A stretch of DNA of 64,000 bases, from NCBI GenBank assembly GCA_965215195.1, contig CBDCDC010000002.1:2784001-2848000 (forward strand), written 5' to 3'. This DNA comes from Candidatus Latescibacterota bacterium (GTDB lineage Bacteria; Latescibacterota; UBA2968; UBA8231). The first letter of the stretch is position 1. Each line of letters starts with the position of its first letter. Position numbers and translations under genes: made by a program. Below the pieces are notes generated by a model. It was not told the DNA's origin. It worked only from the letters and a program-made list of their open reading frames with translations, and ran no database searches. This document shows, piece after piece, positions 18,429 through 31,038 of this stretch.

Positions 18429-19265
18429 ATGAGCGAGTCGAGAAGCGATGCTAGATATACGATGGGGCGTACCGAGGAGGAGGAGGAGCGTCTGATTCAG
18501 CAGTCGCAACTATACGACGCGGTGACGCGGCGCTTTCTCAAAGAAGCGGGCCTCAGCAGCGGGATGAAGGTGCTCGATATTGGCAGCGGTGCCGGGGATG
18601 TAGCCCTGACAGCCGCTGAGTTGGTCGGGCCAAAAGGCACTGTCGTGGGCGTGGATGTAAATCCGGCGATTCTCGAAACGGCGCAGGCACGGGCGCAGAA
18701 AGCCGGGTTTACCAACGTCAAATTCATGGCCGGGGACGCCCGTGCGCTGGACCTCGGAAACGACTTTGACGCCCTGATCGGCCGACTCGTTCTCATGTAC
18801 ATGGCCGATCCCGCCGACGCCCTGAAACAGCTAGCGACCCGCCTGCGCCCGGGGGGGATCGCGGCCTTTCAGGAGGCTGATTTCACCCCCTATCGACAGA
18901 TGTATCATCCACAGACGCCCCTCGCGAACAAGCTGATCGATTGGGCTCTCGGAGTGTTCGAGCATTCCGGGGCGCACATCGGCATGGGCTTTGACCTGTA
19001 TCGCACTTTCGTCGAGGCTGGTTTGCCCGAGCCGTACATGCACTTTGAGTCTCCGGTTGGCGGGCCAGAGTCGTGGGCCGGGTATCAACTCGTTGTCAAC
19101 AGCTTTCGCAGCATGCTCCCGCTCATAGAAGAGTACGGGCTTGCAACGGCCGAAGAGGTTGATGTGGAAACCCTCGCCGAGCGGATTCGGCGAGAAGTGG
19201 TGACGGCAAAACGGCCGTTCGCTCTGCCGCCCCATGTAACCGCCTGGGCACAGCTTGCGAGCTGA
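18429..19265 (+). CDS. Class I SAM-dependent methyltransferase
   Basis: VLDIGSGAG, VVGVD, LRPGG; AAGGAGG RBS. Confidence 0.9.
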   Translation: MSESRSDARYTMGRTEEEEERLIQQSQLYDAVTRRFLKEAGLSSGMKVLDIGSGAGDVALTAAELVGPKGTVVGVDVNPAILETAQARAQKAGFTNVKFMAGDARALDLGNDFDALIGRLVLMYMADPADALKQLATRLRPGGIAAFQEADFTPYRQMYHPQTPLANKLIDWALGVFEHSGAHIGMGFDLYRTFVEAGLPEPYMHFESPVGGPESWAGYQLVVNSFRSMLPLIEEYGLATAEEVDVETLAERIRREVVTAKRPFALPPHVTAWAQLAS

Positions 19266-19352
19266 GCAGCGGGCGCAAAACCCCTAACGGCCGGCGTCAT
19301 AACCTTCTGTTTCTTCTTGCGTTGTCGTCTAACGGAGCGAGGAGTGGATACA

Positions 19353-20429
19353 ATGAGCAAGTGGAAAATTGCCGGAATCAACTTCGACCATCTACACATG
19401 GGCGACAACTTGCGCATGGCCTTTGAGCACGCAGACGCCGAGATCGTCGGCATTTGCGACGAGCAGCCCGAGCGCATGGAGCAGGCGTGCGAGGATTTCG
19501 CCATTCCGCCCGACCGGGTTTTCAGGGACTACCGGGCGTGTTTGGAAAAGACCCAGCCGGACATCGTCCTCCTCTGCCCGGCCACGGCCGAACACGGCGA
19601 GTGGACCGAAAAGGTCGCGCCTTTCGGCGTTCACATCATCGTGGAAAAACCCTTTGCCGCCACCCTCGCCGAGGCGGACCGGATGCAGCGGGCCATGGCG
19701 GGGACGGGCAAAGTGTTGGCGATCAACTGGCCGCTAGCTTGGTATCCACCGCACCGCACGGCGCAACGGCTCATCGCCGCAGGCGAGATCGGCGAGGTGA
19801 TCGAAGTCCACTACTACGACGGCAACCGCGGGCCGCTGTGGCACCTCGCCGACAAAGTGGAGCGCACGGCCGACGTGGTCGAGCGCGAAAAGCCCGCGAG
19901 TTGGTTTTACAAAAAGGCGGCGGGCGGCGGCTCCCTGCTGGACTACTTAGGGTACGGCACCACCTTGGGCACTTGGTACATGGACGGCCGGGCACCAATT
20001 GAGGTGACGGCCACTGTAGATCAGCCCCAAGGGCTCGAAGTAGATGAGCACTGCATTGCGGTGGCGCGCTACGAGCGGGGCCTGTCAAAATTCGAGACGC
20101 GCTGGGGCACCTTTACCGACCCTTGGACCCTGCAACCCCAGCCCAAGTGCGGCTTCGTCATCGTCGGCAGCGAGGGCACGATTAGCTCCTACGACTACGA
20201 GGAGGTAATCCGCGTGCAGACGCGGGCGCAGCCAGCAGCCGAGGAACGGCCGGTAGATGTGCTCGAACCGCCCTTCCAGAATCCCGTTCAGTACGCGATT
20301 CACTGCATCGAAGAGGGCCAACCCATTGAGGGGCCGCTGTCGCCAGCCCTGTGTCGCATCGGCCAGCAGATCGTCGATACCGCCTATCAGAGTGCCGTGC
20401 AGAAGCGCACGGTATCCCTGATTCAATAG
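19353..20429 (+). CDS. Gfo/Idh/MocA oxidoreductase
   Basis: HIIVEKP, GGGSLLDY. Confidence 0.88.
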   Translation: MSKWKIAGINFDHLHMGDNLRMAFEHADAEIVGICDEQPERMEQACEDFAIPPDRVFRDYRACLEKTQPDIVLLCPATAEHGEWTEKVAPFGVHIIVEKPFAATLAEADRMQRAMAGTGKVLAINWPLAWYPPHRTAQRLIAAGEIGEVIEVHYYDGNRGPLWHLADKVERTADVVEREKPASWFYKKAAGGGSLLDYLGYGTTLGTWYMDGRAPIEVTATVDQPQGLEVDEHCIAVARYERGLSKFETRWGTFTDPWTLQPQPKCGFVIVGSEGTISSYDYEEVIRVQTRAQPAAEERPVDVLEPPFQNPVQYAIHCIEEGQPIEGPLSPALCRIGQQIVDTAYQSAVQKRTVSLIQ

Positions 20430-20431
20430 CT

Positions 20432-21550
20432 ATGGCAGAAAGCCAAGACAGCGGCTACGGCCGCGGCGAAACCGGATCAAAAGCCGCAGTAGCAGCCCCG
20501 GACTTGCCCTACCAGCCGCGCGATCCGGTGACCTATCGTCCGCAGATCGGCTTGATTGGCTGCGGCGGCATCTCCGAGATGCACTTGCGCGCCTATAAAA
20601 ACGCCGGTTATGAGGTCGCGGCCCTGTGCAGCCGCGATCGGGGGCGCGTCAAGCAGCGGCGGCGGGAATTCTATCCGGCGGCCGACACCTACCTCGACTA
20701 TCGGGACCTGCTCGCCCGCGCCGACATCGAAGTGGTGGACATCACTCCCCACCCCAAGGAGCGGCTGCCGATCCTCGAAGCGGCCCTTGACGCTGGCAAA
20801 CACGTCTTGAGCCAGAAGCCTTTTGTGCTCGACTTGGACGTGGGCGAGGCACTCATTGCACGGGCCGAGCGGCGCGGCGTACAACTGGCCGTCAATCAGA
20901 ATGGCCGCTGGGCACCGCATTTTAGCTACATGCGCCACGCGGTGGCCGCTGGCTTGGTCGGCCAAGTGCAAAGCGTTGAGTTCGCCGTGCATTGGGACCA
21001 CAACTGGATCGCCGGCTCTGCCTTTGACGCGGTGGAAGATCTGGTGCTCTACGACTTTGGGATGCACTGGTTTGATATGGCGGCGGTGCTCTTAGGGCGC
21101 GAGAAGCCGCAACAGGTCCACGCCTCGGCCCGGCACGCAGCCGGTCAGGAAGCCAAGCCGCCGCTTTTGGCCCAAGCGGCGATTGAGTGCGCGGGGGCGC
21201 AGGCGACGATCTTCTTTAACGGCAGCACCCGCCAAGGACAACAGGATCGCACCTATCTCGTCGGCACGGAGGGCGCCATAGGGGCCAGCGGCGTGGATCT
21301 GACGGCGCAGGAAGTCGCGCTATATACCGCAGCGGGCGTGGCCCGGCCGCAGCTTGTGGGGACGTGGTTTGAGCAGGGATTCCACGGGACCATGGGCGAG
21401 CTGCTCTGCGCTGTCGAGGAGGGCCGCGAACCCAACAACAGCGCCCGCGCCAATCTCGCGAGTTTGGCGCTGTGCTTTGCGGCCGTGGCCAGCGCCCACC
21501 GCGGCGAGCCCGTGGTGCCGGGAGCGGTGCGGCGGCTGCCCGGCCCGTAG
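20432..21550 (+). CDS. Gfo/Idh/MocA oxidoreductase
   Basis: IGLIGCGGI, GKHVLSQKP, DFGMHWFD. Confidence 0.88.
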   Translation: MAESQDSGYGRGETGSKAAVAAPDLPYQPRDPVTYRPQIGLIGCGGISEMHLRAYKNAGYEVAALCSRDRGRVKQRRREFYPAADTYLDYRDLLARADIEVVDITPHPKERLPILEAALDAGKHVLSQKPFVLDLDVGEALIARAERRGVQLAVNQNGRWAPHFSYMRHAVAAGLVGQVQSVEFAVHWDHNWIAGSAFDAVEDLVLYDFGMHWFDMAAVLLGREKPQQVHASARHAAGQEAKPPLLAQAAIECAGAQATIFFNGSTRQGQQDRTYLVGTEGAIGASGVDLTAQEVALYTAAGVARPQLVGTWFEQGFHGTMGELLCAVEEGREPNNSARANLASLALCFAAVASAHRGEPVVPGAVRRLPGP

Positions 21551-21601
21551 GGAACAAGCTGTTTTCCCTACCGCCAGACGGCAATTCCTTGGAGGTTTTC
21601 T

Positions 21602-22450
21602 ATGGATTCAACCTGCCTGCAATACACCTTGACCGAGGAGGAGAGCCGCCGCTTTGCCGAGGACGGCTTCTTCATCGTCCGCGATGTGCTGCCCTTGGAT
21701 TTAGTAGATAAGCTCATCCCGGTCGTCGATCGCCTCGATGCCGAGTACCGGCTGCAAAAGGGGCTAGAAAAGCACCAGATGCACAACTTGTTCGACTTTA
21801 TCGGCAAAGATGCACTCTTTCTGGAATTGCTTGACTGGCCCAAGACATTCGCCAAGGTTTTTGGGATTTTGGGCTGGCATATCCAGCTTTACCACTCGCA
21901 TTTGATCGTTACTCCGCCTTTAGACGGCGTCGTGCCCCAACGCAAGCGGCTGGGCTGGCACCAAGACAGCGGGCGGCTCAACATCGACTTGGAGACTCAG
22001 CCCCGGCCGAGGGTCTCGCTCAAGGTGGCGTATTTTCTCACGGACTGCACCCAGACCCATCGCGGCAACTTCCACGCCGTACCCGGCTCGCACCTGAAAA
22101 ACGAGCTAAAAATGCCAGCGGACGAGGACTTGGACCCAGCGGGCGCAAGGCCGATCCAAGTGGCAGCCGGGGACGCGGTGTTTTTTGACCGGCGAATCTG
22201 GCATGCAGCCGGCCACAACTTCTCGCCCGACGCACGCAAGGCCCTGTTTTACGGCTATAGCTACCGCTGGTTGCGGCCACGCGACGACATGACGGTAGAG
22301 CACCTGCTGGACCGCTGCGATCCGATCCGGCAGCAGCTACTTGGTGCCGGCCCGAGCGGCGGGCACGGCTACACCTCGCCAAAAGAAGAAGACGTGCCCC
22401 TGAGAGCGTGGATTCGCGAGCATTTGGGTGAAGAAGCAGTGGTGCAATAA
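21602..22450 (+). CDS. PhyH-family dioxygenase
   Basis: WHQD, VPGSH, AGDAVFFDRRIWHA. Confidence 0.88.
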   Translation: MDSTCLQYTLTEEESRRFAEDGFFIVRDVLPLDLVDKLIPVVDRLDAEYRLQKGLEKHQMHNLFDFIGKDALFLELLDWPKTFAKVFGILGWHIQLYHSHLIVTPPLDGVVPQRKRLGWHQDSGRLNIDLETQPRPRVSLKVAYFLTDCTQTHRGNFHAVPGSHLKNELKMPADEDLDPAGARPIQVAAGDAVFFDRRIWHAAGHNFSPDARKALFYGYSYRWLRPRDDMTVEHLLDRCDPIRQQLLGAGPSGGHGYTSPKEEDVPLRAWIREHLGEEAVVQ

Positions 22451-22496: not shown

Positions 22497-25400
22497 CTAA
22501 CCCACCGGCAGTCCGACAAAGAGCCGGCTGGACACGCTGCTCAGCGGCTCAACTTCGCCGCGCTCGGCCGCCCTAGCAAAGACTACGCCCGGCTGCGCGG
22601 CCCGAGCGGCCCGGCCCAAGACGTGATAATCGGCCCGGCCGGGCTGTTGGGCCGCTTCCCGCGCCTCGCTCCAGCCCTCGTTGGTGGCGGCCAGACCCCA
22701 CAAGGCACGCGGTGCCCGCACCTTGGCCTCCTCCACCGACAGGCCATCGCGCCAACAACCGCGCTGGGCGAACAAACTACCATCTTCCCGACAGATCAGC
22801 CCACCACCCACGTATTGGATCACCTGCTGTTGGTTGCCTCGCGCCCCCGATAGCGTCAACAGGGCTAGGGGCCCCAAGTCGTTGTCGGCGAAATCGGCCT
22901 GCTGGTAGAAAGCCGCCACTAACTCGTCGCTGTACATTTGCCACTCGTCCCCATGGACCTCTTTGGGTTGCTCTGGCCACTCCTTGCCCGAACCGAGGAA
23001 GGGGTTGAAGGAGGCCCCTGACTGCTTGCAGACCTCAAAGCCGCGCCGCGTCAGCCGGTCGAGTACATCCAGCGCTCGCTCCAAACCCTCGCGCTGCAGC
23101 ACCTGAGCGAGCAAGCGATTGAGATCGCGCTTGGTGAACAGCCGGCTGCCATCCACCGCCATTCCGGTCAGCCCCTCCACTTCGGCACGGCCTTCCTCCG
23201 TGCGACACAGCCGCGCCAAGCCCCATGTCATGCCGTGATAGTTGTCGGCCACGTAACGCCAGACATCCGCATCGCGCTGGATGTGTCCGGCCACCGACAG
23301 CGCGGTCTCGGCTTCGGCCTGGGCTTCCTCGGTGAGGGGCAAAAACACCTCGATGGAGTCGCCGTCGAAATCTAGCTCCATTAGTCGGCAAACGCGCGGA
23401 TGGACGCGCACTGCGGCCCCGGCCAAGCGCTGCGGGCGAAAGGCCACCACTGCGGTGGACATTGGGCCTTCGTCAACCAGCATCCGCTGGGCGCTGTACA
23501 GCAGCACCCACGAGCGCGCCATGATCGCGTCCAGAGCCTCAGTCGCCCGGGCCGAGCACCGCACCACTTCGTCGGCGCGACCTATCTCCCGCTCCACCTG
23601 AGGCCCGAACAAAGCCCAAGCCATTTCTTCGGGCAGGCCCACTTGGTCGAGATTCAGCTCAAATCCCGAGACGAGCGCGGCCCGGCCGCTAAACAGCGGT
23701 CTGGCCCGGAAGTGAAGGTGGTCCGGGCGCAACAACGCGGCGAAAAAATCCGCCACCCGCTGGGCCACTCGGGCCATTGCCGGTCCGACTAGGGGCTCCG
23801 GGGCCTCGCTGTCAACGACGCGCTGCAAGCGCGTATTGGCTTCGACCAAATCCTCGAAGCAGCCTCGGATTGGGTCGAACTCGGTTTCCGCGGGCAAAGC
23901 GACGGGAGCGCCCACCGTCCCCACTTGGCGTCCCGGAGCCCACGGGTGCGGCACGGGCTGGGCTAGGGTCAGCCCCTCGGGCTCGGCAAAGGAGAAGCGC
24001 AACGTTGCACTCGCTAACTCGGCTCGTATCCCGGCCATACCCAACAACTGCTGTAACAAGGCAAAGCGCGGGGATGGTGGGGGAGACGGGGATATTGGGC
24101 CAGAGGTCAAGTGCTGGCCCAGCGCATGGGCGTCGGCCCGCTCGGCCGCGGCCGTGTTGAACAAAGCGTGGATATTGGCTACGGCCCCGGCCTCGCACAA
24201 CGCTCCGTAGGCCATCATGTCGAGCTCTGGTCCGCCGACTCCTGCGACCGCAGTTTCCAAGCGCTCGGCCGCGGTGTGGGTGCGGCCCCAGTACACCCAA
24301 CCCACAGTGCTGCGATAGGGCAGCTTTGCGCCTTGGAGGGTCAGTTGCTCCATGCCGTCTCGGGGCAGTCCCGCCGCCGCCAGACGCGCTTTTAACGTCT
24401 CTTCGCTGGGTGCTCGAAAAGGCGGCACCACGGCCGGAGTCCCTTCGGCTTGGGCGAGGCGGCCCATGACTGCCTCGCGCTGTTGGCCGAAATTGAGCCG
24501 CGAGATCATACTGGTAGGACTGAAAATGAGTTCTAGCGGTGCCCCATCGGGCAACTGCGGCATATCGGCGTCGGGCAGGATGCGCGTCACCACCCCTTTG
24601 GCGCCGTGGCGGTTGCTCATGCGGTCGCCCACTCCCACTGCGGCGGGAAAATCCATCCGCGCCGCGGCCGATTCGCTGATGACCAAGCCATCCTCAAACG
24701 TGTCTCCGTCCCACATGATGAAGGCGGTCAGCAGATTGTAGCCACCCCAAAAGTCGGGGGCTTCGGGCTCGTACCCGGTCTGTACTAGGGCTGGCTCGGG
24801 TTTGTTGCCCTTGGAGGCCAAGCGCTGATCGTACTGCTGGCGGAACCAGCCCGTGGAGTGGACCGGTGCCCCTGTAGCGGCCGCGCTCGTCCACTGGCGC
24901 ATCATATTGACGCCCATCAGGGCGCGATTGGTATCGTCGTGTTCGAGGAAGGGGACCATGGAGGCCGAAAAACCCAAAATGCTGTCGGGCGCTGGGTCGA
25001 TCCGTTCGAGCTTGCCGTCGCGGATGCGGGCCCCGCGGGCGACTTCGAGTACGCGGCCGATATTGGGTCCCTCGGGGGTGCAGTAGGGGCATACTAGGCC
25101 GTATTGGCTGTAGGGGAAAACGTCTTGGCTGTCAAAAGACGCGACGACCAGCCGCCGCAGATGGGTATAGCGGTCGAGCCAGTTGGTCGCCTGTAGGTAC
25201 TGCGAGGTTTCCTCCAAGTGGAAGTCGCGCATCCAAGCGTCTAGCGGCAGCCAGTTGTGCACCAAGTCGCCGTCCCAAGCCAACTGCTCGGGGGCCGCCT
25301 CCAACCTCTGGTCAATAAAATCGCAGAGCTGCTCGCCCACGCACAGAATTCGCGCTTGCTCGAGCTCGCGCCGGTCGGGATAGGGGACCACGATCCGGTA

Positions 25401-25637
25401 GTTGCCCTCAATGCGGAAAAGGCCATCGCGGTCGGGCCGCGGCAGGTCGCGGTACTCAACCTCGACCGAGGCGTCGCCGAGTCCCAAGCTCAGTTTAATG
25501 GAAAAAGTATAAGGGCCCTGTTGTTCGACTTGATAGTCGGCCAGCGGCAGGCGCTTACCCAAGAGCCGGGGCAGTCGCTGGTGGACGAAAAGGTCAAAGG
25601 ACTCCCTGTGCCAAGGTACGTCGAGATTCAATGTCAT
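22497..25637 (-). CDS. Miniaturised single-chain RNA polymerase beta-beta' fusion-like protein (1046 aa)
   Basis: Collinear RpoB motifs (SQYLQATNWLDRYTHLRR, YGLVCPYCTPEGPNIG, PFLEHDDTNRALMGVNMMRQ, FEDG, GDRMSNRHGAKG, SRLNFGQ) then RpoC motifs (SGRAAL..GLPEEMA, VHPRVC..DFDGD..VFLPLTEEAQAEA, SGARGN). Confidence 0.93.
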   Translation of the reverse strand: MTLNLDVPWHRESFDLFVHQRLPRLLGKRLPLADYQVEQQGPYTFSIKLSLGLGDASVEVEYRDLPRPDRDGLFRIEGNYRIVVPYPDRRELEQARILCVGEQLCDFIDQRLEAAPEQLAWDGDLVHNWLPLDAWMRDFHLEETSQYLQATNWLDRYTHLRRLVVASFDSQDVFPYSQYGLVCPYCTPEGPNIGRVLEVARGARIRDGKLERIDPAPDSILGFSASMVPFLEHDDTNRALMGVNMMRQWTSAAATGAPVHSTGWFRQQYDQRLASKGNKPEPALVQTGYEPEAPDFWGGYNLLTAFIMWDGDTFEDGLVISESAAARMDFPAAVGVGDRMSNRHGAKGVVTRILPDADMPQLPDGAPLELIFSPTSMISRLNFGQQREAVMGRLAQAEGTPAVVPPFRAPSEETLKARLAAAGLPRDGMEQLTLQGAKLPYRSTVGWVYWGRTHTAAERLETAVAGVGGPELDMMAYGALCEAGAVANIHALFNTAAAERADAHALGQHLTSGPISPSPPPSPRFALLQQLLGMAGIRAELASATLRFSFAEPEGLTLAQPVPHPWAPGRQVGTVGAPVALPAETEFDPIRGCFEDLVEANTRLQRVVDSEAPEPLVGPAMARVAQRVADFFAALLRPDHLHFRARPLFSGRAALVSGFELNLDQVGLPEEMAWALFGPQVEREIGRADEVVRCSARATEALDAIMARSWVLLYSAQRMLVDEGPMSTAVVAFRPQRLAGAAVRVHPRVCRLMELDFDGDSIEVFLPLTEEAQAEAETALSVAGHIQRDADVWRYVADNYHGMTWGLARLCRTEEGRAEVEGLTGMAVDGSRLFTKRDLNRLLAQVLQREGLERALDVLDRLTRRGFEVCKQSGASFNPFLGSGKEWPEQPKEVHGDEWQMYSDELVAAFYQQADFADNDLGPLALLTLSGARGNQQQVIQYVGGGLICREDGSLFAQRGCWRDGLSVEEAKVRAPRALWGLAATNEGWSEAREAAQQPGRADYHVLGRAARAAQPGVVFARAAERGEVEPLSSVSSRLFVGLPVG

Positions 25638-26258
25638 TCGCGTTCCTCCGGGTTATTAATAGCCTGCCAGGCTCGTGCGATCTGGCGGCGGCCGTGGTGC
25701 AGACGCGACTTTACAGTGCCTTCGGGAATGCCCAGTCGCTCGGCCGCGTCCCGCACTTCGACTTGGGCGTCGTAGATCAGACGGAAAACTTCGCGCTTGT
25801 CCTCGGACAACTCTTGTACTTGTCGCCGCAGCCAGCGCTGCTGGTCAGCCCATTCCACTTGGGCGTCGGGGTGCTCAGACGCAGCCTCAATCATCCACTC
25901 GGGCACTTGCTGCAATCATCCACTCGGGCACTTGCTGCGCCTCCTGCTGCACGGTTTCAGACAGCATTTCCAGCCGCTGCTCCCGCCGCCGCCGCACGGT
26001 GCGCAGGTGCGTCAGGGAAAGATGAGTGGCAATGCGGAACAGCCAGTTAGCCGCAGAGCCTCGACCGCTCCATTGGCCGGCCCGGTTCCACACTCGCAAG
26101 AAAACCTCCTGCACTACATCGTTAGCACTCGCATCGTCGCGGACGATGCAGCGCACGCGGTGGTGGACCTGCGCCCGATAGCGCTCAAAGAACTGCTCGA
26201 ATGCGCGTGCATCGCGTTCTTTTATTCGCGCTATGAGTTGTGGGTCCGGTATCTGCAT
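25634..26258 (-). pseudogene. ECF sigma-70 factor, frameshifted by a 25-bp tandem duplication (199 aa if one copy is removed)
   Basis: Region 2 (DVVQEVFLRVW...WLFRIA) in ORF 25887-26258; region 4 (AAERLGIPEGTVKSRLHHGR) in ORF 25634-25915; ATGA overlap with the RNAP-like gene. Confidence 0.9.
25888..25937. repeat. Exact 25-bp tandem duplication
   Basis: CAATCATCCACTCGGGCACTTGCTG at 25888-25912 and 25913-25937. Confidence 0.97.
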
Positions 26259-26277
26259 TGAGGCCCTCTGCAGATAA

Positions 26278-26304
26278 AGACGCCGCCCGGAAGGCATAGG
26301 TTCA
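26278..26304 (-). promoter_or_regulatory. Candidate ECF-type (autoregulatory) promoter
   Basis: TGAACC-N16-CGTCT on the minus strand, 19 nt upstream of the sigma ATG. Confidence 0.6.
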
Positions 26305-26628: not shown

Positions 26629-27528
26629 ATGATTCCGACTATCACCCTGCGACAAAAAGTAATAGAAGGGGGCCAAAAAGGCCCCAACCTGCTGCTCTTG
26701 GGCGGCGTCCACGGCGACGAGTTCGAGTCTATGGCGGCCATCCGCCGCCTGCTGGACCACCTCGACCCAGCGGCCTTGCGGGGCCGCCTCACGGCCATCC
26801 CGGTAGTCAACGAAGCCGCCTATTGGCGCGGCCAGCGCACGGCCGAAGACGGGCTGGACTTGGCCCGCACCTGCCCGGGCCGGGCCGATGGCTCAATCAC
26901 CGAGCGCACGGCTCACGCCGTCAGCGAGGAAATCCGCCGGGCCGACTATCTCATCGACCTGCACAGCGGCGGGTTGGTCATGGAATTCTACCCGACCGCG
27001 GGGTACACCCTGCATCCCGATAAAGCCATCCTCAATGTGCAACGGCGCATGGCCCGAGCACTGAATATGCCCATCATCTGGGGCACCTCGGCCCGACTTG
27101 ACGGACGCACGCTTTCAGTGGCCCGCGACGCCAATGTGCCGGCCATGTACGCCGAGTGGATGGGCGGTGGCACATGCGACCCTCGAGGGGTGGATGCTTA
27201 TTTTGCGGGCTGCTTGAACGTCTTGGCCGAACTGGGCATGATCGACCGCACCTTGCCGCCCCGGCGCACCGAGTACACCGTGGAGGACGACCGCGACAAT
27301 GCTGGCCATGTGCAGCTCAATTACCCGGCGCCCTTTGCCGGTTATTTTGAGCCCCAAGTAACACTGAAAGCGCTCGTGCAACCGGGCGACGCGATCGGCA
27401 CGGTGGTCGATCCTCTGGGGCAGCGGCGCGAGGAAGTGGTATCGACCGAGGCGGGCTTGATCCTGTGTCTGCGGGTCTTCAACCGCGTCCACCAAGGGGA
27501 CAGCTTGGCCGCGGTTTTGGAACTATGA
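26629..27528 (+). CDS. Succinylglutamate desuccinylase/aspartoacylase (M14) family protein
   Basis: GGVHGDE, IPVVN, DLAR, IDLHSG. Confidence 0.88.
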   Translation: MIPTITLRQKVIEGGQKGPNLLLLGGVHGDEFESMAAIRRLLDHLDPAALRGRLTAIPVVNEAAYWRGQRTAEDGLDLARTCPGRADGSITERTAHAVSEEIRRADYLIDLHSGGLVMEFYPTAGYTLHPDKAILNVQRRMARALNMPIIWGTSARLDGRTLSVARDANVPAMYAEWMGGGTCDPRGVDAYFAGCLNVLAELGMIDRTLPPRRTEYTVEDDRDNAGHVQLNYPAPFAGYFEPQVTLKALVQPGDAIGTVVDPLGQRREEVVSTEAGLILCLRVFNRVHQGDSLAAVLEL

Positions 27529-27752
27529 CCCCCTTTTCCGCGCCGCTGGACTCGCGCCGTTTCCAGTCCGCGCTACTGCTTCTTTTAGGCCCCCTATTCA
27601 TCGGGGTTTCCTTCGCTCTTATGCTGCGCCGGGTGGAACCTGTGACCACCTTGTTTTATTTGTGCGCTTGGTGCTTACACGATTGGCCTGAGCATCTTCC
27701 TGAACTCAAGCGCATGGGCAAGCGTTGGTCTCTCATTGAGACGGAGCACTAA
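27525..27752 (+). pseudogene. Short membrane-protein fragment
   Basis: ATGA-coupled to upstream gene; hydrophobic N-terminus then an unrelated-looking tail. Confidence 0.3.
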
Positions 27753-27913
27753 ACCAAGACTGCGCCACAACGTACATTACTGTTGCGTACTAAGGCCGAG
27801 GAGTAACACATGTTTCGAGTAACAACAGATGGCCACTGCGATTCCCTGCGGCCATTTGAAAACGTTGGGCTGCCATAAATGCTGCCTCACGCGACGCGAA
27901 ACTTTGAGCGATT

Positions 27914-28459
27914 GTGCGACACTTGCTGCTGATTAGACATTGTCAATCCGCGGGACAAGATCCGGATGCGACACTAACAGAGATTGGGCAAAAACAGGCG
28001 GAAGCACTCGCTAGGTTTTTATCCGACTACCCGATAGACGTGATCGTCTCCAGCTCTTACACGCGGGCACAACAAAGCATTGAACCGTTTGCTGCCACAG
28101 TGGGATTGCCTGTTCACTTGGATCACCGCCTAATTGAACGGATGCTTTCCGGGAGTCCGATTGACAATTGGCGCGAGGTGATCCGCGACTCATTCGGCGA
28201 CTTGGAGTTGCGGATGCCGGGAGGCGAGTCGGCACGCGAAGTGTTGGACCGCGGCTGGGCTGCGATAAGCGAGCTACTCAACGGTGGTCACCGGTTCCCA
28301 ATTGCGATAACCCATGGCAACCTCTTGAGTCTGATCCTGAACTCACTGGACCCTAATTTCGGCTACGCTCGATGGGAGTCTCTGTCGAACCCAGACGTAT
28401 TCGCACTCAAAGAAGCCGACGATGGGCGATTGGTATTCGAGAGACTCTGGTCTGAATAG
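27914..28459 (+). CDS. Histidine phosphatase family protein
   Basis: LIRHC, SSSYTRA, PGGES, ITHG. Confidence 0.88.
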   Translation: MRHLLLIRHCQSAGQDPDATLTEIGQKQAEALARFLSDYPIDVIVSSSYTRAQQSIEPFAATVGLPVHLDHRLIERMLSGSPIDNWREVIRDSFGDLELRMPGGESAREVLDRGWAAISELLNGGHRFPIAITHGNLLSLILNSLDPNFGYARWESLSNPDVFALKEADDGRLVFERLWSE

Positions 28460-28613
28460 GCACCGGCCGCTTAATGACAAGGAGCGACAAACTTACCCGA
28501 TCCTTGCAGTCGTTCATCGCCTTGACTTTACTACAATACAATCATCGCGGTCTGCGTCGTCTCTCTAGACACGGGCTGACGCAGACGCAACCGATGGCGA
28601 AAGGAGATTTCTA

Positions 28614-29105
28614 ATGGCCATTATCAATGAACTTCTCGCAAACAACGCCCGCTATGCCGACCACTTCGACAAGGGTGCTCTCCCCCTGCCTCCAAGGCTG
28701 CACCTAGCGGTGGTGGCCTGCATGGACGCGCGCATCGACACGCACAGCCTGCTGGGGATCGCGGAAGGGGACGCGCACGTGATTCGGAATGCGGGCGGCG
28801 TGATAACCGACGACGCGATTCGTTCGCTGACGATCTCGCAGCGGCTGTTGGGCACGACTTCGATCATGCTCATCCACCACACGGATTGCGGTATGCTGAC
28901 GTTCCGCGACGACGACGTGAAGGACACAATCGTGGCTGATACCGGCATCCGCCCGGCCTTCGCCTTGGAGGCGTTCGGTGATCTCGAAGAGGACGTACGG
29001 CAGTCGATGGCCCGCATTCAGGCTAGCCCGTTTATTCCGCACAAGGACGATGTGCGGGGATTTGTCTATGACTGCGCCACCGGAAAGCTGAACGAAGTCA
29101 CCTGA
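28614..29105 (+). CDS. Beta-class carbonic anhydrase
   Basis: CMDAR, IRNAGG, HHTDCG; AAGGAG RBS. Confidence 0.93.
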   Translation: MAIINELLANNARYADHFDKGALPLPPRLHLAVVACMDARIDTHSLLGIAEGDAHVIRNAGGVITDDAIRSLTISQRLLGTTSIMLIHHTDCGMLTFRDDDVKDTIVADTGIRPAFALEAFGDLEEDVRQSMARIQASPFIPHKDDVRGFVYDCATGKLNEVT

Positions 29106-29207
29106 TCCCAAGCCGAATGCCTGAAATTTTACACGATTGGCCTGAGCGCATTGATTTGCCAATAACCTTAGTACCAGACAGTGATCTTTGAGGTCGGACA
29201 CTGGTTA

Positions 29208-30044
29208 TTACGCGACGGCCATCTTGTTGCAATCCAGCGAAAACATGAGCGGCAAACTGCGATCTGGAATCTCCCAGTAACCATCGGTGCGCTGAACCAT
29301 ACACGCGAACTTGCGAAAACCGCCGTAGGGAAACTCCTCTAAGCCGTGGATCGCCAGACCAGCAGACCCAGCCGCTGTGACAAATTCGCCCAGATGGTGA
29401 GACCACTGGTAGGTAGTTTTGTTCACCAGACGACCTCCTTCTCCTGTGTAAGCTCTCGCTAATTTTTCGACCGTGCATAGTTCGGGTGTCTCATCGTGGA
29501 AATAGCTGTCGTTGAGGGACAAGGAGCCGCTCGCGGCGTCACAATCAATCATGTCGAGCACTGGATGCCCGTCGACGACGAAAACCCGGCCAGCGGGCTT
29601 TAACATGGTGCTCGCAACCGAAAACCACCGCTGGAGATCCGGTATCCAACAAAACACGCCGTGGGAAGCAAAAACCAGATCGAATGATTGGCGCTCCAAG
29701 ACATCGCCCACAGAGTACACATTAGCACAGTGGAACTCGGCACTCAGCCCCGTCTCTTCGGCCAGTTGGCGTGCTTTCTCAATGGCGGTGTCGGAAAAGT
29801 CCACCCCGGTCACGATCCCACCCATTCTGCTGAGGGAAAGGGAATCGAGGCCAAAGTGGCATTGCAGATGGAGAATTCGCTTTCCGGCGACATTGCCAAG
29901 CGCTCTTACCTCGACGGGTCCCAACGTGCAGCGGCCGTCGAGAAATCCTTGCACATCGTAAAACTTCGTCCCGACGTGGAATCCGACCCTTTCGTTCCAA
30001 TTCTCGCGATTGGCGCGAAAGTAGGTTTCGTCAAGGGGCTTCAA
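29208..30044 (-). CDS. Class I SAM-dependent methyltransferase (start uncertain: TTG 30044 or GTG 30065)
   Basis: NRENWNER, ILHLQCHFG, GVDFS, LKPAG. Confidence 0.85.
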   Translation of the reverse strand: MKPLDETYFRANRENWNERVGFHVGTKFYDVQGFLDGRCTLGPVEVRALGNVAGKRILHLQCHFGLDSLSLSRMGGIVTGVDFSDTAIEKARQLAEETGLSAEFHCANVYSVGDVLERQSFDLVFASHGVFCWIPDLQRWFSVASTMLKPAGRVFVVDGHPVLDMIDCDAASGSLSLNDSYFHDETPELCTVEKLARAYTGEGGRLVNKTTYQWSHHLGEFVTAAGSAGLAIHGLEEFPYGGFRKFACMVQRTDGYWEIPDRSLPLMFSLDCNKMAVA

Positions 30045-30066
30045 TGTCCTGTATTCCCCGACCACT

Positions 30067-31038
30067 TTAGGCACAGACAGCCGCGTCGGCGCTCCAGCGG
30101 TTGAAGGGGGTGTGCGCCTCTTGCGCCAGCCGGTCGCGGGTATCGCGCCAGAGCTTTTCCCACGCCACTGGATCGCGCAAGACGCTTGCTGGGTTGGCTG
30201 TGCTGCGGGCGACAAAGCCGGGGAAGAGGTCGCGGCCCGTGGGCTGGCCGATTGGATTATAGCGCAAGTCAAAGCTCCAGCGCACGTCGTCGCTGTTGTT
30301 GGTCAGCGAGCCGTGGATGGTGTGTTGAGTGAGGAAGAGCACGTCGCCGGGCTGCATGGGCACCGGCAGTGCCGCGTCCATATCCATAAACAGCTCGGGT
30401 ATCCACAGCCCCCCCGGCCCTCCCGGGCAGTGCGTTTGCAGCCCCCGGCGGTGACTGCGGGGCATAATCTGCAAACAGCCATTTTCGAGCGTCGCCTCAT
30501 TGAGCGGAAACCACACCGTTAGGACCTCTGAGTCGTCGGCTTCGGGCAGGACCACGCCGTTGTCTTGGTGCCAGTTGGTGGCGCTGACCAGTGCTTGGCC
30601 GTTGTGGTTTTTGGGCACTAGGCGCTCGGGCGGCTTGAGGCGCACGTGCTGGACCGGGTTGGACCAAATCTCCGGGCCGACGATGGATTCGACCGCGTCG
30701 AGGAGGTCGGGGTTGGTAATGCAGCGAAAAACGGCTGGCCCGGCCCAGAAGGGGGTGTCGGCCTCAATGCCGGTCTGGGGCAGGGAGAAGTCGAAGTACT
30801 GGGCGTGGATTTGGCCGCTATCGACGACGATTTGCGTCAGGCGCTTGCCAAAGGGCAGGTCGTCGTACGCGGATGCGATCTGGCCGGCTTGGTAGAGTTC
30901 ACGAGCCAGCTTGTCGAGGACGCCGTGGTATTCGTCGATAATGGGCTGGATGACCTTGTCCGCGTCAAGCATCCCTCTCATTAGCAAGTAGCCTTCTTCG
31001 TCAAAGTGTGCGAGTTGTTGGTCCGTCAAGCGTGGCAT
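30067..31038 (-). CDS. PhyH-family dioxygenase
   Basis: WHQD, TVWFPL, PGDVLFL..HTIHGS, RWSFDLRY; GGAGGA RBS. Confidence 0.88.
   Translation of the reverse strand: MPRLTDQQLAHFDEEGYLLMRGMLDADKVIQPIIDEYHGVLDKLARELYQAGQIASAYDDLPFGKRLTQIVVDSGQIHAQYFDFSLPQTGIEADTPFWAGPAVFRCITNPDLLDAVESIVGPEIWSNPVQHVRLKPPERLVPKNHNGQALVSATNWHQDNGVVLPEADDSEVLTVWFPLNEATLENGCLQIMPRSHRRGLQTHCPGGPGGLWIPELFMDMDAALPVPMQPGDVLFLTQHTIHGSLTNNSDDVRWSFDLRYNPIGQPTGRDLFPGFVARSTANPASVLRDPVAWEKLWRDTRDRLAQEAHTPFNRWSADAAVCA

Follow-up and report, generated by a model that had tools for sequence, protein, structure and literature searches.

The window analysed here, a stretch of 64,000 nucleotides from a Candidatus Latescibacterota bacterium (assembly GCA_965215195.1, contig CBDCDC010000002.1), carries on its reverse strand a gene (22497..25637) whose open reading frame, translation, Pfam and NCBIfam profiles and AlphaFold (AF2) model mark its product as a fused and trimmed beta::beta' protein of 1046 aa, a mini RNA polymerase (RNAP). 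An ECF sigma gene, recognised from its Pfam domains and intact orthologues, lies directly upstream (25634..26258, reverse strand), and its TGA stop overlaps the ATG of the polymerase (ATGA), which confirms an earlier note on this DNA in placing the gene in coupling downstream of an ECF sigma. Ahead of the sigma gene, the sequence and its conservation point to an ECF-type promoter, TGAACC-N16-CGTCTT (26277..26304, reverse strand).

The sigma frame is broken in the window by two tandem copies of a 25-bp unit (25888..25937, reverse strand), seen in the sequence and by comparison with other assemblies. If one copy is discounted the gene encodes 199 aa, and the intact orthologues have 196-206 aa. 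Pfam reports Sigma70_r2 and Sigma70_r4_2, and no sigma domain other than these regions 2 and 4, both on the two pieces in the window and on the intact 199-aa orthologue from locus L018. The duplication is absent from every covering contig of all four other assemblies or runs, which come from three studies. The frameshift is private to this assembly, and the premise of the earlier note that the sigma had to be repaired falls away.

Architecture of the fused protein

Pfam detects the domains Rpb2_3, Rpb2_6 (5e-29) and Rpb1_2 (2e-11) in the polymerase frame. Against the NCBIfam profiles, the protein reaches 157.2 bits for rpoB (TIGR02013, cut-off 801) and 84.7 bits for rpoC (TIGR02386, cut-off 963.5), far below equivalog level in both cases, so that it does not count as an orthologue of either rpoB or rpoC. 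Archaeal profiles give 77-99 bits for B and 23 bits for A', as compared with 157 bits for bacterial rpoB and 85 for rpoC. The protein aligns to bacterial beta at E 1.7e-89 and to beta' at E 7.8e-57, and in its sequence it is clearly an RNAP of the bacterial type.

When the profile of the polymerase family was aligned to RpoB of E. coli MG1655 and to E. coli beta', the beta segments retained (E. coli numbering) were 118-148, 474-580, 650-707, 793-821 and 1054-1342, and those of beta' were 267-516, 575-640 and 712-794, with a weak match at 1322-1354. Both double-psi beta-barrels, the fork region, switch 2, the bridge helix and the clamp helices are kept, together with the C-terminal part of beta and the C-terminal motif of beta'; the beta lobe, flap, zinc finger, rudder, trigger loop and jaw are absent from the mapping. 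The order of fusion is beta then beta', and what is left of the two subunits amounts to roughly one third of their joint length, the 1342 and 1407 aa of E. coli beta and beta' being represented here by one chain of 1046 aa. Fusion in this order, with the loss of most peripheral modules, would have given rise to a single-chain, minimal two-barrel RNAP.

The AF2 model of the polymerase has a pLDDT of 92.7 and a pTM of 0.90, and the best PDB matches that Foldseek finds for it consist entirely of beta or beta' chains of RNAP (E values down to 4e-22). The bridge helix is predicted at residues 968-996 (22650..22736, reverse strand) from an AF2 helix and the alignment to beta' 712-794 (24.8 bits), and the C-terminus lies 50 residues past it. 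As regards a trigger loop, nothing in the polymerase aligns between about 810 and 1320 of E. coli beta'. The confidence of the model is lowest at residues 719-723 (pLDDT <50), where the window copy reads EGP and the family consensus is RAP, in a motif related to the NRAPTLHR segment of beta'.

In the place of the beta flap there is a DFPAA linker (residues 329-333; 24639..24653, reverse strand), located by alignment to E. coli beta and to 8i23_C, the beta chain of a Clostridium. Around the linker, the frame reads EDGLVISESAAARM-DFPAA-VGVGDRMSNRHGAKG (residues 315-348). E. coli beta 793-821 aligns just before this junction and 1054-1148 just after it, so that 822-1053 (232 residues) has no counterpart, and the removal of about 230 aa of flap described in the earlier note is borne out. 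This figure holds for E. coli numbering, which includes a lineage-specific insert. Against 8i23_C the gap is 794-928, about 135 residues. AF2 assigns pLDDT values of 94-97 over the junction (10-residue blocks 311-350).

The cysteines of the beta' zinc finger are also absent, as had been stated: there is no cysteine between polymerase residues 482 and 592. A segment that aligns weakly (-2.5 bits) to E. coli beta' 76-130 has the ...LAxPVPHPW motif and lacks the zinc-binding cysteines. Its PHPW (residues 563-566; 23940..23951, reverse strand), which this alignment suggests to be a remnant of the beta' N-terminal conserved motif, is held by nearly all of 54 homologues (H564 in 53, P565 and W566 in 54).

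The strong match to beta' begins at E. coli beta' 267, that is, at the clamp helices, and the domain 267-516 scores 133.8 bits. Alignment, AF2 and conservation place these helices at residues 585-635 (TEFDPIRGCFEDLVEANTRLQRVVDSEAPEPLVGPAMARVAQRVADFFAAL; 23733..23885, reverse strand), and the model shows two long helices, 585-609 and 614-635, so that the clamp coiled coil reported in the earlier note is indeed present. It survives although the adjoining rudder and all of beta' N-terminal to it, except the short PHPW remnant, are gone. The flap has been deleted and the clamp helices kept, as the earlier note reads the anatomy, but to call the trimming selective says too little: it is not specific to the flap, as most peripheral modules of both subunits have been lost. 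The deletions are in frame, as had been noted, and belong to a fixed architecture: more than 100 full-length homologue clusters, of about 1000-1070 aa, occur among the matches listed.

Catalytic centre and selection

Conservation was evaluated on a set of 54 diverse homologues with 34-90% identity and a mean column identity of 38%. In the beta half, E315-D316 (24690..24695, reverse strand) align to the ED within the NFEDS segment of E. coli beta, a pair with a putative role in binding Mg, and are found in 47/54 and 52/54 homologues, respectively. The beta active-site motif GDRMSNRHGAKG (residues 337-348; 24594..24629, reverse strand) corresponds in the alignments to the bacterial GDKMAGRHGNKG. 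Within this beta-type barrel motif (GDK..RHG.KG), G337, D338, R343 and G345 are present in 54/54 homologues and K347 in 47/54. In the beta' half, Pfam and the alignments locate the catalytic DFDGD of the double-psi beta-barrel at residues 756-760 (23358..23372, reverse strand), with D756 conserved in 49/54, D758 in 52/54 and D760 in 49/54; a few members of the family lack a catalytic Asp (five at D756, five at D760 and two at D758). The mean dN/dS is 0.16 (171 pairs from 19 close orthologues), and each region falls at 0.11-0.21. By this measure the whole polymerase, with the barrels and the bridge-helix end included, is under purifying selection.

These data bear on the proposal of the earlier note that the protein is a decoy anti-sigma, a mimic of the core whose catalysis would be irrelevant and which would sequester the ECF sigma through the clamp helices, away from the host core. 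Like ECF anti-sigma factors, the polymerase is encoded in coupling downstream of an ECF sigma, the usual position of an anti-sigma gene, and it has kept the clamp helices, and with them a surface that in canonical RNAP binds sigma region 2. In addition, there is no recognisable anti-sigma gene in the neighbourhood, and no anti-sigma domain was found in the neighbouring genes of the window. However, a sequestering decoy needs neither a conserved catalytic centre nor purifying selection on the whole protein. Here the active-site residues are found in 47 to 54 of 54 homologues across phyla, in a family in which mean column identity is just 38%, and selection acts on all regions, which argues against the decoy. 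Unlike anti-sigma factors, the polymerase has about 1000 residues, and 1046 aa would be very costly for a sequestering factor; Pfam shows RNAP domains alone in it and no anti-sigma domain. A pure decoy anti-sigma is unlikely, and we would give this explanation only a slight chance.

Clamp helices, sigma and promoter

In canonical RNAP, the clamp helices are the coiled coil on which sigma region 2 docks. The clamp motif A-N-x-R-L-x-R...P is conserved among the 54 homologues of the polymerase (A600 in 43, N601 in 42, R603 in 41, L604 in 42, P613 in 51 and L616 in 49), and the region 585-640 has a dN/dS of 0.20. The clamp segment is therefore conserved among orthologues, a point on which the earlier note had made its reading depend.

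The sigma and polymerase genes travel together. Sigma region 4 is found directly upstream of the polymerase in 33 of 36 loci (tblastn; records of Latescibacterota, Poribacteria, Chloroflexota and Armatimonadota). In a set of 168 genomes from the phylum, both genes occur in 62, the polymerase only in 4, the sigma only in 1 and neither in 101; thus, 62 of the 63 sigma-positive genomes also carry the polymerase, the exception being at a contig edge. Among the five genomes with one gene, two are at contig edges (including the one with sigma only) and two have truncated polymerase remnants (G136 and G146), which lack the sigma too. The complete genome G143 has an intact polymerase gene of 1047 aa and no sigma orthologue at E<=1e-25. 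Sigma and polymerase alone are common to distant loci, with no third conserved neighbour across them; the neighbour genes vary between loci and are metabolic, and no alpha or omega gene is linked to the polymerase. In one genus, an ABC exporter or an unknown 396-aa gene stands, variably, between the sigma and the polymerase.

The promoter is conserved as well. GAACY-N16-[ACT]GTC occurs upstream of sigma in 27 of 32 loci (19/19 close and 8/13 distant), as compared with a mean of about 0.015 loci per group after shuffling. It is made of an ordinary ECF-type GAAC -35 element, an ordinary spacing of 16 nt and a CGTC-like -10. In the whole genome (6.13 Mb) the strict form has a single site, that of its own operon, and a search for a regulon with the loose form TGAACY-N16-YGTC gave 30 sites in the genome, against about 38 expected from base composition. 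Three intergenic GAAC-N-CGTCTT sites resemble generic ECF promoters.

A complex of polymerase residues 262-1046 with the L018 sigma was predicted with an ipSAE of 0.50 (runs 0.48, 0.51 and 0.50), whereas the best of three controls gave 0.00, and the result was graded as weak support. Of 157 solved complexes, 116 attain the mark used, as do 2 of 215 mismatched pairs; scores at the mark but not above 0.60 correspond to 18 of the 157 solved complexes and to both mismatches that pass. The runs share at least 36% of their contacts, the partner has a pLDDT of at least 65, and no interface is given by the prediction. Since RNAP-sigma complexes have already been solved, the pass may reflect likeness to these and not binding.

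We see about an even chance, judging from sequence, that the 1046-aa protein is an active, sigma-using minimal RNA polymerase that works as a two-protein unit with the upstream ECF sigma. Polymerase and sigma would then form a self-contained transcription unit beside the normal RNAP of the host. The clamp helices that survive would be the docking place of sigma region 2, the sigma would read the GAAC / (C/T)GTC promoter, and through this promoter the operon would feed back on itself. We infer that the protein would polymerise RNA, that its clamp helices would be what sigma binds, and that the mini-polymerase holoenzyme, not the host RNAP with sigma, would fire the promoter.

Some observations do not fit this reading easily. 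The flap and the beta' zinc-finger region, on which sigma region 4 and the linker (with its conserved motif VPxWMI) dock in canonical RNAP, are missing, yet the -35 element and the spacing are normal, and E. coli RNAP that lacks the flap is not known to work at -35-dependent promoters. Moreover, G143 has a polymerase without sigma, no regulon was found in the genome search, a few members are without one catalytic Asp, and the window copy has EGP. The earlier note had suggested, as a second option, a holoenzyme with non-standard -35 recognition. The holoenzyme is favoured, with the weak complex prediction (0.50 vs 0.00) in its support; non-standard -35 recognition is so far unsupported, as the element is an ordinary GAAC with 16-nt spacing.

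Alternatively, the polymerase could be independent of sigma, like YonO of Bacillus, and the ECF sigma with the host core would be the switch of an operon in which the polymerase is cargo. The usual docking sites for sigma region 4 are gone, the host holoenzyme could read the promoter, which has the look of an ordinary ECF one, and the complex prediction is weak, all of which would be consistent with this possibility; the clamp helices, on the other hand, are the sole peripheral element of beta' that survived the trimming, and they are conserved. The retention of the polymerase without sigma in one genome (G143), as well as the cargo-like presence of other genes between sigma and polymerase in one genus, would also fit. 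Nevertheless, sigma is found without the polymerase at one contig edge only, with both genes in 62/63 sigma-positive genomes, both polymerase remnants (G136 and G146) have lost sigma too, and the stop-start overlap suggests stoichiometric co-production. There is a precedent in YonO, a single-chain two-barrel RNAP that acts alone (PMC5467207). On balance, we regard a sigma-independent polymerase as doubtful.

Distribution and known relatives

Within the phylum, the polymerase is present in 66 of 168 genomes and 16 of 49 genera, and in 21 of 30 genomes of its own genus (G000 excluded). Members also occur in records that bear the labels of other phyla, at least four in number. A total of 325 cluster representatives were recovered at E<1e-30, some of which are ordinary or giant fused beta/beta' proteins, and the source names of the family members are all 'hypothetical protein' among the matches listed. 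Elsewhere in the genome that contains the window, normal rpoB and rpoC are present as open frames (1271 and 1385 aa); the mini polymerase is therefore additional to the host enzyme.

A mobile-element origin was considered and rejected, as no full-length member was found on phage, plasmid or viral-contig records. Among the matching records, 0/32 of phages and 0/68 of plasmids cover at least 80% of the polymerase query. Viral contigs yielded 15 loci, none of which matches the full length of the polymerase or exceeds 34% identity, and the viral structures (BFVD) include none of the same compact build, with a query-normalised TM of at most 0.39.

The distribution is relevant to another possibility, namely that the enzyme has a different job and, active with or without sigma, makes something else than ordinary mRNA, such as an RNA-templated product, primers or short RNAs, for example in a stress or anti-phage response that would go on while the host RNAP is blocked. 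Its patchy occurrence (16/49 genera) would fit an accessory function, as would the fact that no regulon was found. However, the polymerase matched 0 families of defence-system profiles (PADLOC), no phage or plasmid record reached the coverage given above, the neighbour genes are variable and metabolic, and the elements that serve a DNA bubble (fork, switch 2 and clamp) have been kept. We consider such a role improbable.

Searches of openly available full texts found no description of an ECF-linked, trimmed beta::beta' fusion. The main text of the ECF re-classification paper (PMC7826278) does not mention RpoB, RpoC, Rpb or an RNAP subunit, and one of its supplementary files contains no Rpb1, Rpb2, PF00562 or PF00623, although other supplements might list such a neighbour. 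A review of non-canonical ECFs (PMC8999054) contains no such mention either. The polymerase, with its sigma, appears to be a second machinery for transcription, so far undescribed, that several phyla of uncultured bacteria possess.

We would tentatively consider it possible that this is the smallest sigma-dependent RNAP of the cellular type. It would be formed by a 115-kDa chain and a 22-kDa ECF sigma (masses from length), as a complete system orthogonal to the host that would read -35/-10 promoters without flap, zinc finger, lid, rudder or trigger loop. Sigma region 4 would then have to be held in a novel manner, and the system would amount to a natural experiment that defines the minimal set of modules for promoter-specific transcription. 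An active and sigma-dependent enzyme would show how far a bacterial RNAP can shrink and still start at promoters, and would offer a compact object for structural work on sigma docking and promoter melting. The two-gene transcription unit could also be a candidate orthogonal system for synthetic biology.

With the canonical bacterial RNAP and its ECF sigmas, the polymerase has in common both barrels, the catalytic motifs, the bridge helix, switch 2 and the clamp helices, and the operon shares with such systems a two-domain ECF sigma and a GAAC/CGTC-type promoter. YonO, from the Bacillus prophage SPbeta, is described in PMC5467207 as a single-chain two-barrel RNAP with no recognisable trigger loop, which synthesises RNA as efficiently as multisubunit RNAPs and shares with them only a few catalytic residues; so small an enzyme can thus be an efficient DNA-dependent RNAP. 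According to the same paper, the flap, lid, zipper, rudder and lobe each appear to be dispensable in vitro under mild conditions. YonO (about 100 kDa) and the polymerase are alike in having both barrels in one chain and no recognisable trigger loop, whereas the polymerase, unlike YonO, can be aligned to beta and beta' along the greater part of its sequence. Furthermore, YonO is encoded by a prophage, while the polymerase is linked to a sigma and occurs on no phage record at 80% coverage or more.

Another parallel is Orf6 of the yeast killer plasmid pGKL2, a Rpb2::Rpb1 fusion of 982 aa from which about half of the coding sequence has been deleted, and which PMC2919709 describes as not biochemically characterised. 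Orf6 resembles the polymerase in that the second-largest subunit is followed by the largest in a fusion of about 1000 aa, in another domain of life; unlike the polymerase, it descends from eukaryotic Rpb2 and Rpb1, lacks a sigma and is encoded by a linear plasmid of the cytoplasm. In evolution, the polymerase is a bacterial parallel to the killer-plasmid fusion and to YonO and, unlike both, comes clearly from the modern bacterial enzyme and still has a sigma beside it.

The full-length fused beta-beta' proteins of the PRK09603 and PRK14844 type, and the giant forms of viral contigs, have the same order, beta then beta'. These fusions of 2000-2900 aa are untrimmed. The polymerase scores 148 bits against the PRK09603 cut-off of 5372. 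The fused frames of 2007 and 2883 aa on viral contigs are 27-34% identical to the polymerase.

A single-chain polymerase of bacterial descent

Sequence comparison indicates that the mini polymerase is a two-barrel RNA polymerase (RNAP) that has been cut down to one chain but has kept its tie to a sigma factor. It is encoded by one ORF of 1046 codons spanning window 22497-25637 (-), in which Pfam recognises Rpb2 domain 3 (residues 146-205), Rpb2 domain 6 (residues 335-452, E 5e-29) and Rpb1 domain 2 (residues 729-780). Its top NCBIfam matches are bacterial rpoB, at 157 bits, and rpoC, at 85 bits, far short of the 801 and 963 bits that the equivalog cut-offs require, and the archaeal counterpart models score it much lower (77-99 and 23 bits). 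Because the bacterial models score best, yet so far under their cut-offs, the protein is of bacterial beta/beta' descent and an orthologue of neither rpoB nor rpoC. Ordinary rpoB and rpoC lie elsewhere in the window's genome, as open frames 1271 and 1385 aa long, and the mini polymerase gene is present there in one copy only.

A profile built from 54 diverse full-length homologues was aligned to RpoB and RpoC of E. coli MG1655. In beta, it matches residues 118-148, 474-580, 650-707, 793-821, 1054-1148 and 1177-1342 (the C-terminus). The flap deletion described in an earlier note is real, given that E. coli beta 822-1053 has no counterpart and that in the window's protein DFPAA spans the gap between ...ISESAAARM and VGVGDRM...; against a Clostridium beta chain, the absent piece is 794-928. 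In beta', residues 76-130 are weakly matched, with a LAxPVPHPW motif kept there. The zinc finger is gone, since residues 482-592 of the mini polymerase contain no cysteine, in line with the missing zinc-finger cysteines of the earlier note. The strong beta' match coincides in its start, E. coli residue 267, with the clamp helices, which had been read as retained, and runs to 516 via DFDGD, interrupted by a 25-residue gap at the rudder position in E. coli numbering. Further matches cover 575-640, 712-794 (bridge helix) and, weakly, 1322-1354, and nothing in the mini polymerase was aligned to about 810-1320 (trigger loop, its insert and jaw). All the sequence observations of the earlier note were therefore borne out, but the trimming that it called selective is not aimed at the flap: across beta and beta' the deletions are general. 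What stands out from the alignment is that the clamp helices survived them.

The AlphaFold model, made with the alignment of these 54 homologues as input, is confident (mean pLDDT 92.7, pTM 0.90), with two long helices at residues 585-609 and 614-635 and another at 968-996. The top PDB matches found by Foldseek were RNAP beta and beta' chains only.

In function, the nearest analogues are YonO and Orf6 of yeast killer plasmids. In extracts from PMC5467207, YonO is a single-chain two-barrel RNAP with no recognisable trigger loop that matches the multisubunit enzyme in its efficiency of RNA synthesis; there, the flap, lid, zipper, rudder and lobe each seem dispensable in vitro under mild conditions. 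Orf6, in extracts from PMC2919709, is an Rpb2::Rpb1 fusion of 982 aa that has lost about half of the coding sequence. Unlike YonO, the mini polymerase family can be aligned for most of its length with the beta and beta' of modern bacteria (against solved chains, E 1.7e-89 and 7.8e-57), and it differs from both in being chromosomal, in several bacterial phyla, and paired with a sigma. No record among 50,697 from phages or 72,556 from plasmids carried the family at ≥80% coverage; matches in viral contigs, at 15 loci, all fell short of the query's full length and stayed at or below 34% identity. Profiles of defence systems gave no match to the mini polymerase. Two IMG/VR viral contigs (L042 2666-8689 and L044 1718-10369) each encode one giant ORF, 2007 and 2883 aa long respectively, with matches to the beta as well as the beta' parts at 27-34% identity, and these represent a different, untrimmed fused form. 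No description of the family was found in the open-access full texts searched, mostly main texts, two ECF reviews or classifications included.

Spread and selection of the family

Among the matches listed, over 100 homologues are full-length, at about 1000-1070 aa, and are named 'hypothetical protein' where a source name is given and labelled as Latescibacteria, Gemmatimonadota, Hydrogenedentes, Chloroflexi and Armatimonadetes. When 1.84 billion cluster representatives were searched exhaustively, 325 matched at E<1e-30, which include, among the lower scorers, some ordinary or giant fused beta/beta'. We took 36 loci from species-representative genomes, all metagenome-assembled and including Poribacteria, Chloroflexia, Anaerolineae and Capsulimonas records. 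A single polymerase ORF of at least 1021 aa was found in 29 of the 32 loci uncut by a contig end. The other three frames are shortened (957 aa, L019 5019-7892; 905 aa, L035 4965-7682) or split (325+566 aa, L029 5372-8150), and could be decaying copies or assembly errors.

Among 19 close orthologues, dN/dS averaged 0.16 (171 pairs) and ranged from 0.11 to 0.21 across eight segments, with 0.20 in the clamp-helix segment. Catalytic positions are much better conserved than the mean column identity of 38% over the 54 diverse sequences: the beta' triad is kept in 49 (D756), 52 (D758) and 49 (D760), G337, D338, R343 and G345 in all 54, K347 and E315 in 47 each, and D316 in 52.

The dedicated sigma and its promoter

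An ECF sigma gene lies directly upstream (window 25634-26258 (-)), and its TGA stop overlaps the polymerase ATG. In the window, regions 2 and 4 fall on two overlapping frames because a 25-bp unit is tandemly duplicated at 25888-25937. The 25 bases were missing from every covering Logan contig, in four of four public runs from three studies, one of these contigs differing otherwise in just 2 places over 1132 bases. No other assembly thus shares the frameshift, which is most probably an error in this one. Once one of the two copies is left out, the sigma has 199 aa, and its orthologues are similar. In an alignment of 23 intact sigma ORFs (43-92% identity to the first sequence), a VPxWMI motif is conserved in the linker between regions 2 and 4 (columns about 113-120), and across phyla its P is invariant and its W nearly so. 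The motif may be where the sigma touches the polymerase. The spurious duplication falls exactly on this motif.

At the promoter site named in the earlier note, TGAACC-N16-CGTCTT was found upstream of the sigma (window 26304-26277). The sigma start has GAACY-N16-[ACT]GTC no more than 80 nt away in 19/19 close and 8/13 distant loci, and the -10 end lies 12-23 nt ahead of the start codon; in composition-preserving shuffles, on average about 0.015 loci per group had the motif. In form and spacing, this is a promoter of the ordinary ECF type. Its strict form is unique in the window's genome and its loose form no commoner there than composition predicts, so that this promoter search found no regulon beyond the sigma-polymerase operon.

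By tblastn, sigma region 4 stands immediately upstream of the polymerase in 33 of the 36 loci, one of the three misses having no DNA upstream of the polymerase, and 32 loci hold an intact sigma ORF. When all neighbouring ORFs were clustered, only the sigma and the polymerase were common to distant loci. The window's flanks (18429-22450 and 26629-30272) carry unrelated metabolic genes, for SAM methyltransferases, two GFO/IDH/MocA oxidoreductases, a PhyH dioxygenase (convergent with the polymerase gene), an AstE/AspA-type deacylase, a histidine phosphatase and a beta carbonic anhydrase, none of which is conserved beside the pair in distant loci. The polymerase (E<=1e-60) occurs in 66 and a sigma orthologue (E<=1e-25) in 63 of 168 genomes of the phylum, and the polymerase in 16 of its 49 genera; 62 genomes have both, 4 the polymerase only, 1 the sigma only and 101 neither, counts that are not independent, as the genomes are related. 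The sigma-only case (G156) is at a contig edge. Of the polymerase-only cases, G149 lies at the start of a contig, truncated remnants are all that G136 and G146 hold, and G143, a complete genome of the same genus, has an intact 1047-aa polymerase (L059 6100-9243) and no sigma orthologue. There, the gene next upstream encodes a carbonic anhydrase and is on the opposite strand, and the sigma looks to have been deleted along with two or three others.

How the pair may work

That the mini polymerase is an active polymerase is suggested by the conservation of its catalytic centre, by purifying selection and by the precedent of YonO; a product other than mRNA, or another role altogether, seems improbable. 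The upstream sigma would be its initiation factor, given that the clamp helices are retained and conserved, that co-occurrence and adjacency with a dedicated sigma are near-perfect, and that the two genes are translationally coupled. A sigma-using minimal polymerase is our leading reading, at about even odds. The main rival, a sigma-independent polymerase whose operon the sigma merely turns on through the host RNAP, is rather unlikely, and draws on the loss of the docking sites for sigma region 4, the ordinary sigma promoter and genome G143. The interpretation in the earlier note thus stands in part, as a polymerase that may use its sigma; its other half, a pure decoy anti-sigma, we judge very unlikely.

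Complex prediction, with polymerase residues 262-1046 and the sigma of a close orthologue (L018, the window's copy being broken), gives weak support to the pairing. The ipSAE was 0.50 (runs 0.48, 0.51 and 0.50; the score is given without an interface) and the best of three controls 0.00; the runs share at least 36% of contacts, with partner pLDDT of at least 65. Of 157 solved complexes, 116 reach the mark used, and of 215 mismatched pairs, 2 do; at 0.60 or below it is reached by only 18 of the 157 and both passing mismatches. The pass may also reflect mere likeness, since RNAP-sigma complexes are solved. If the sigma-using reading is true, the mini polymerase may be the smallest promoter-specific polymerase of cellular type.

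In one genus of the same class, an extra same-strand gene lies between sigma and polymerase, encoding a 597-aa ABC exporter in one genome (L057 3848-5641 (-)) and, in another, a 396-aa protein with no match in Pfam, PADLOC or PHROG (L058 1160-2350 (+)). These genes may be cargo of the sigma-driven operon.
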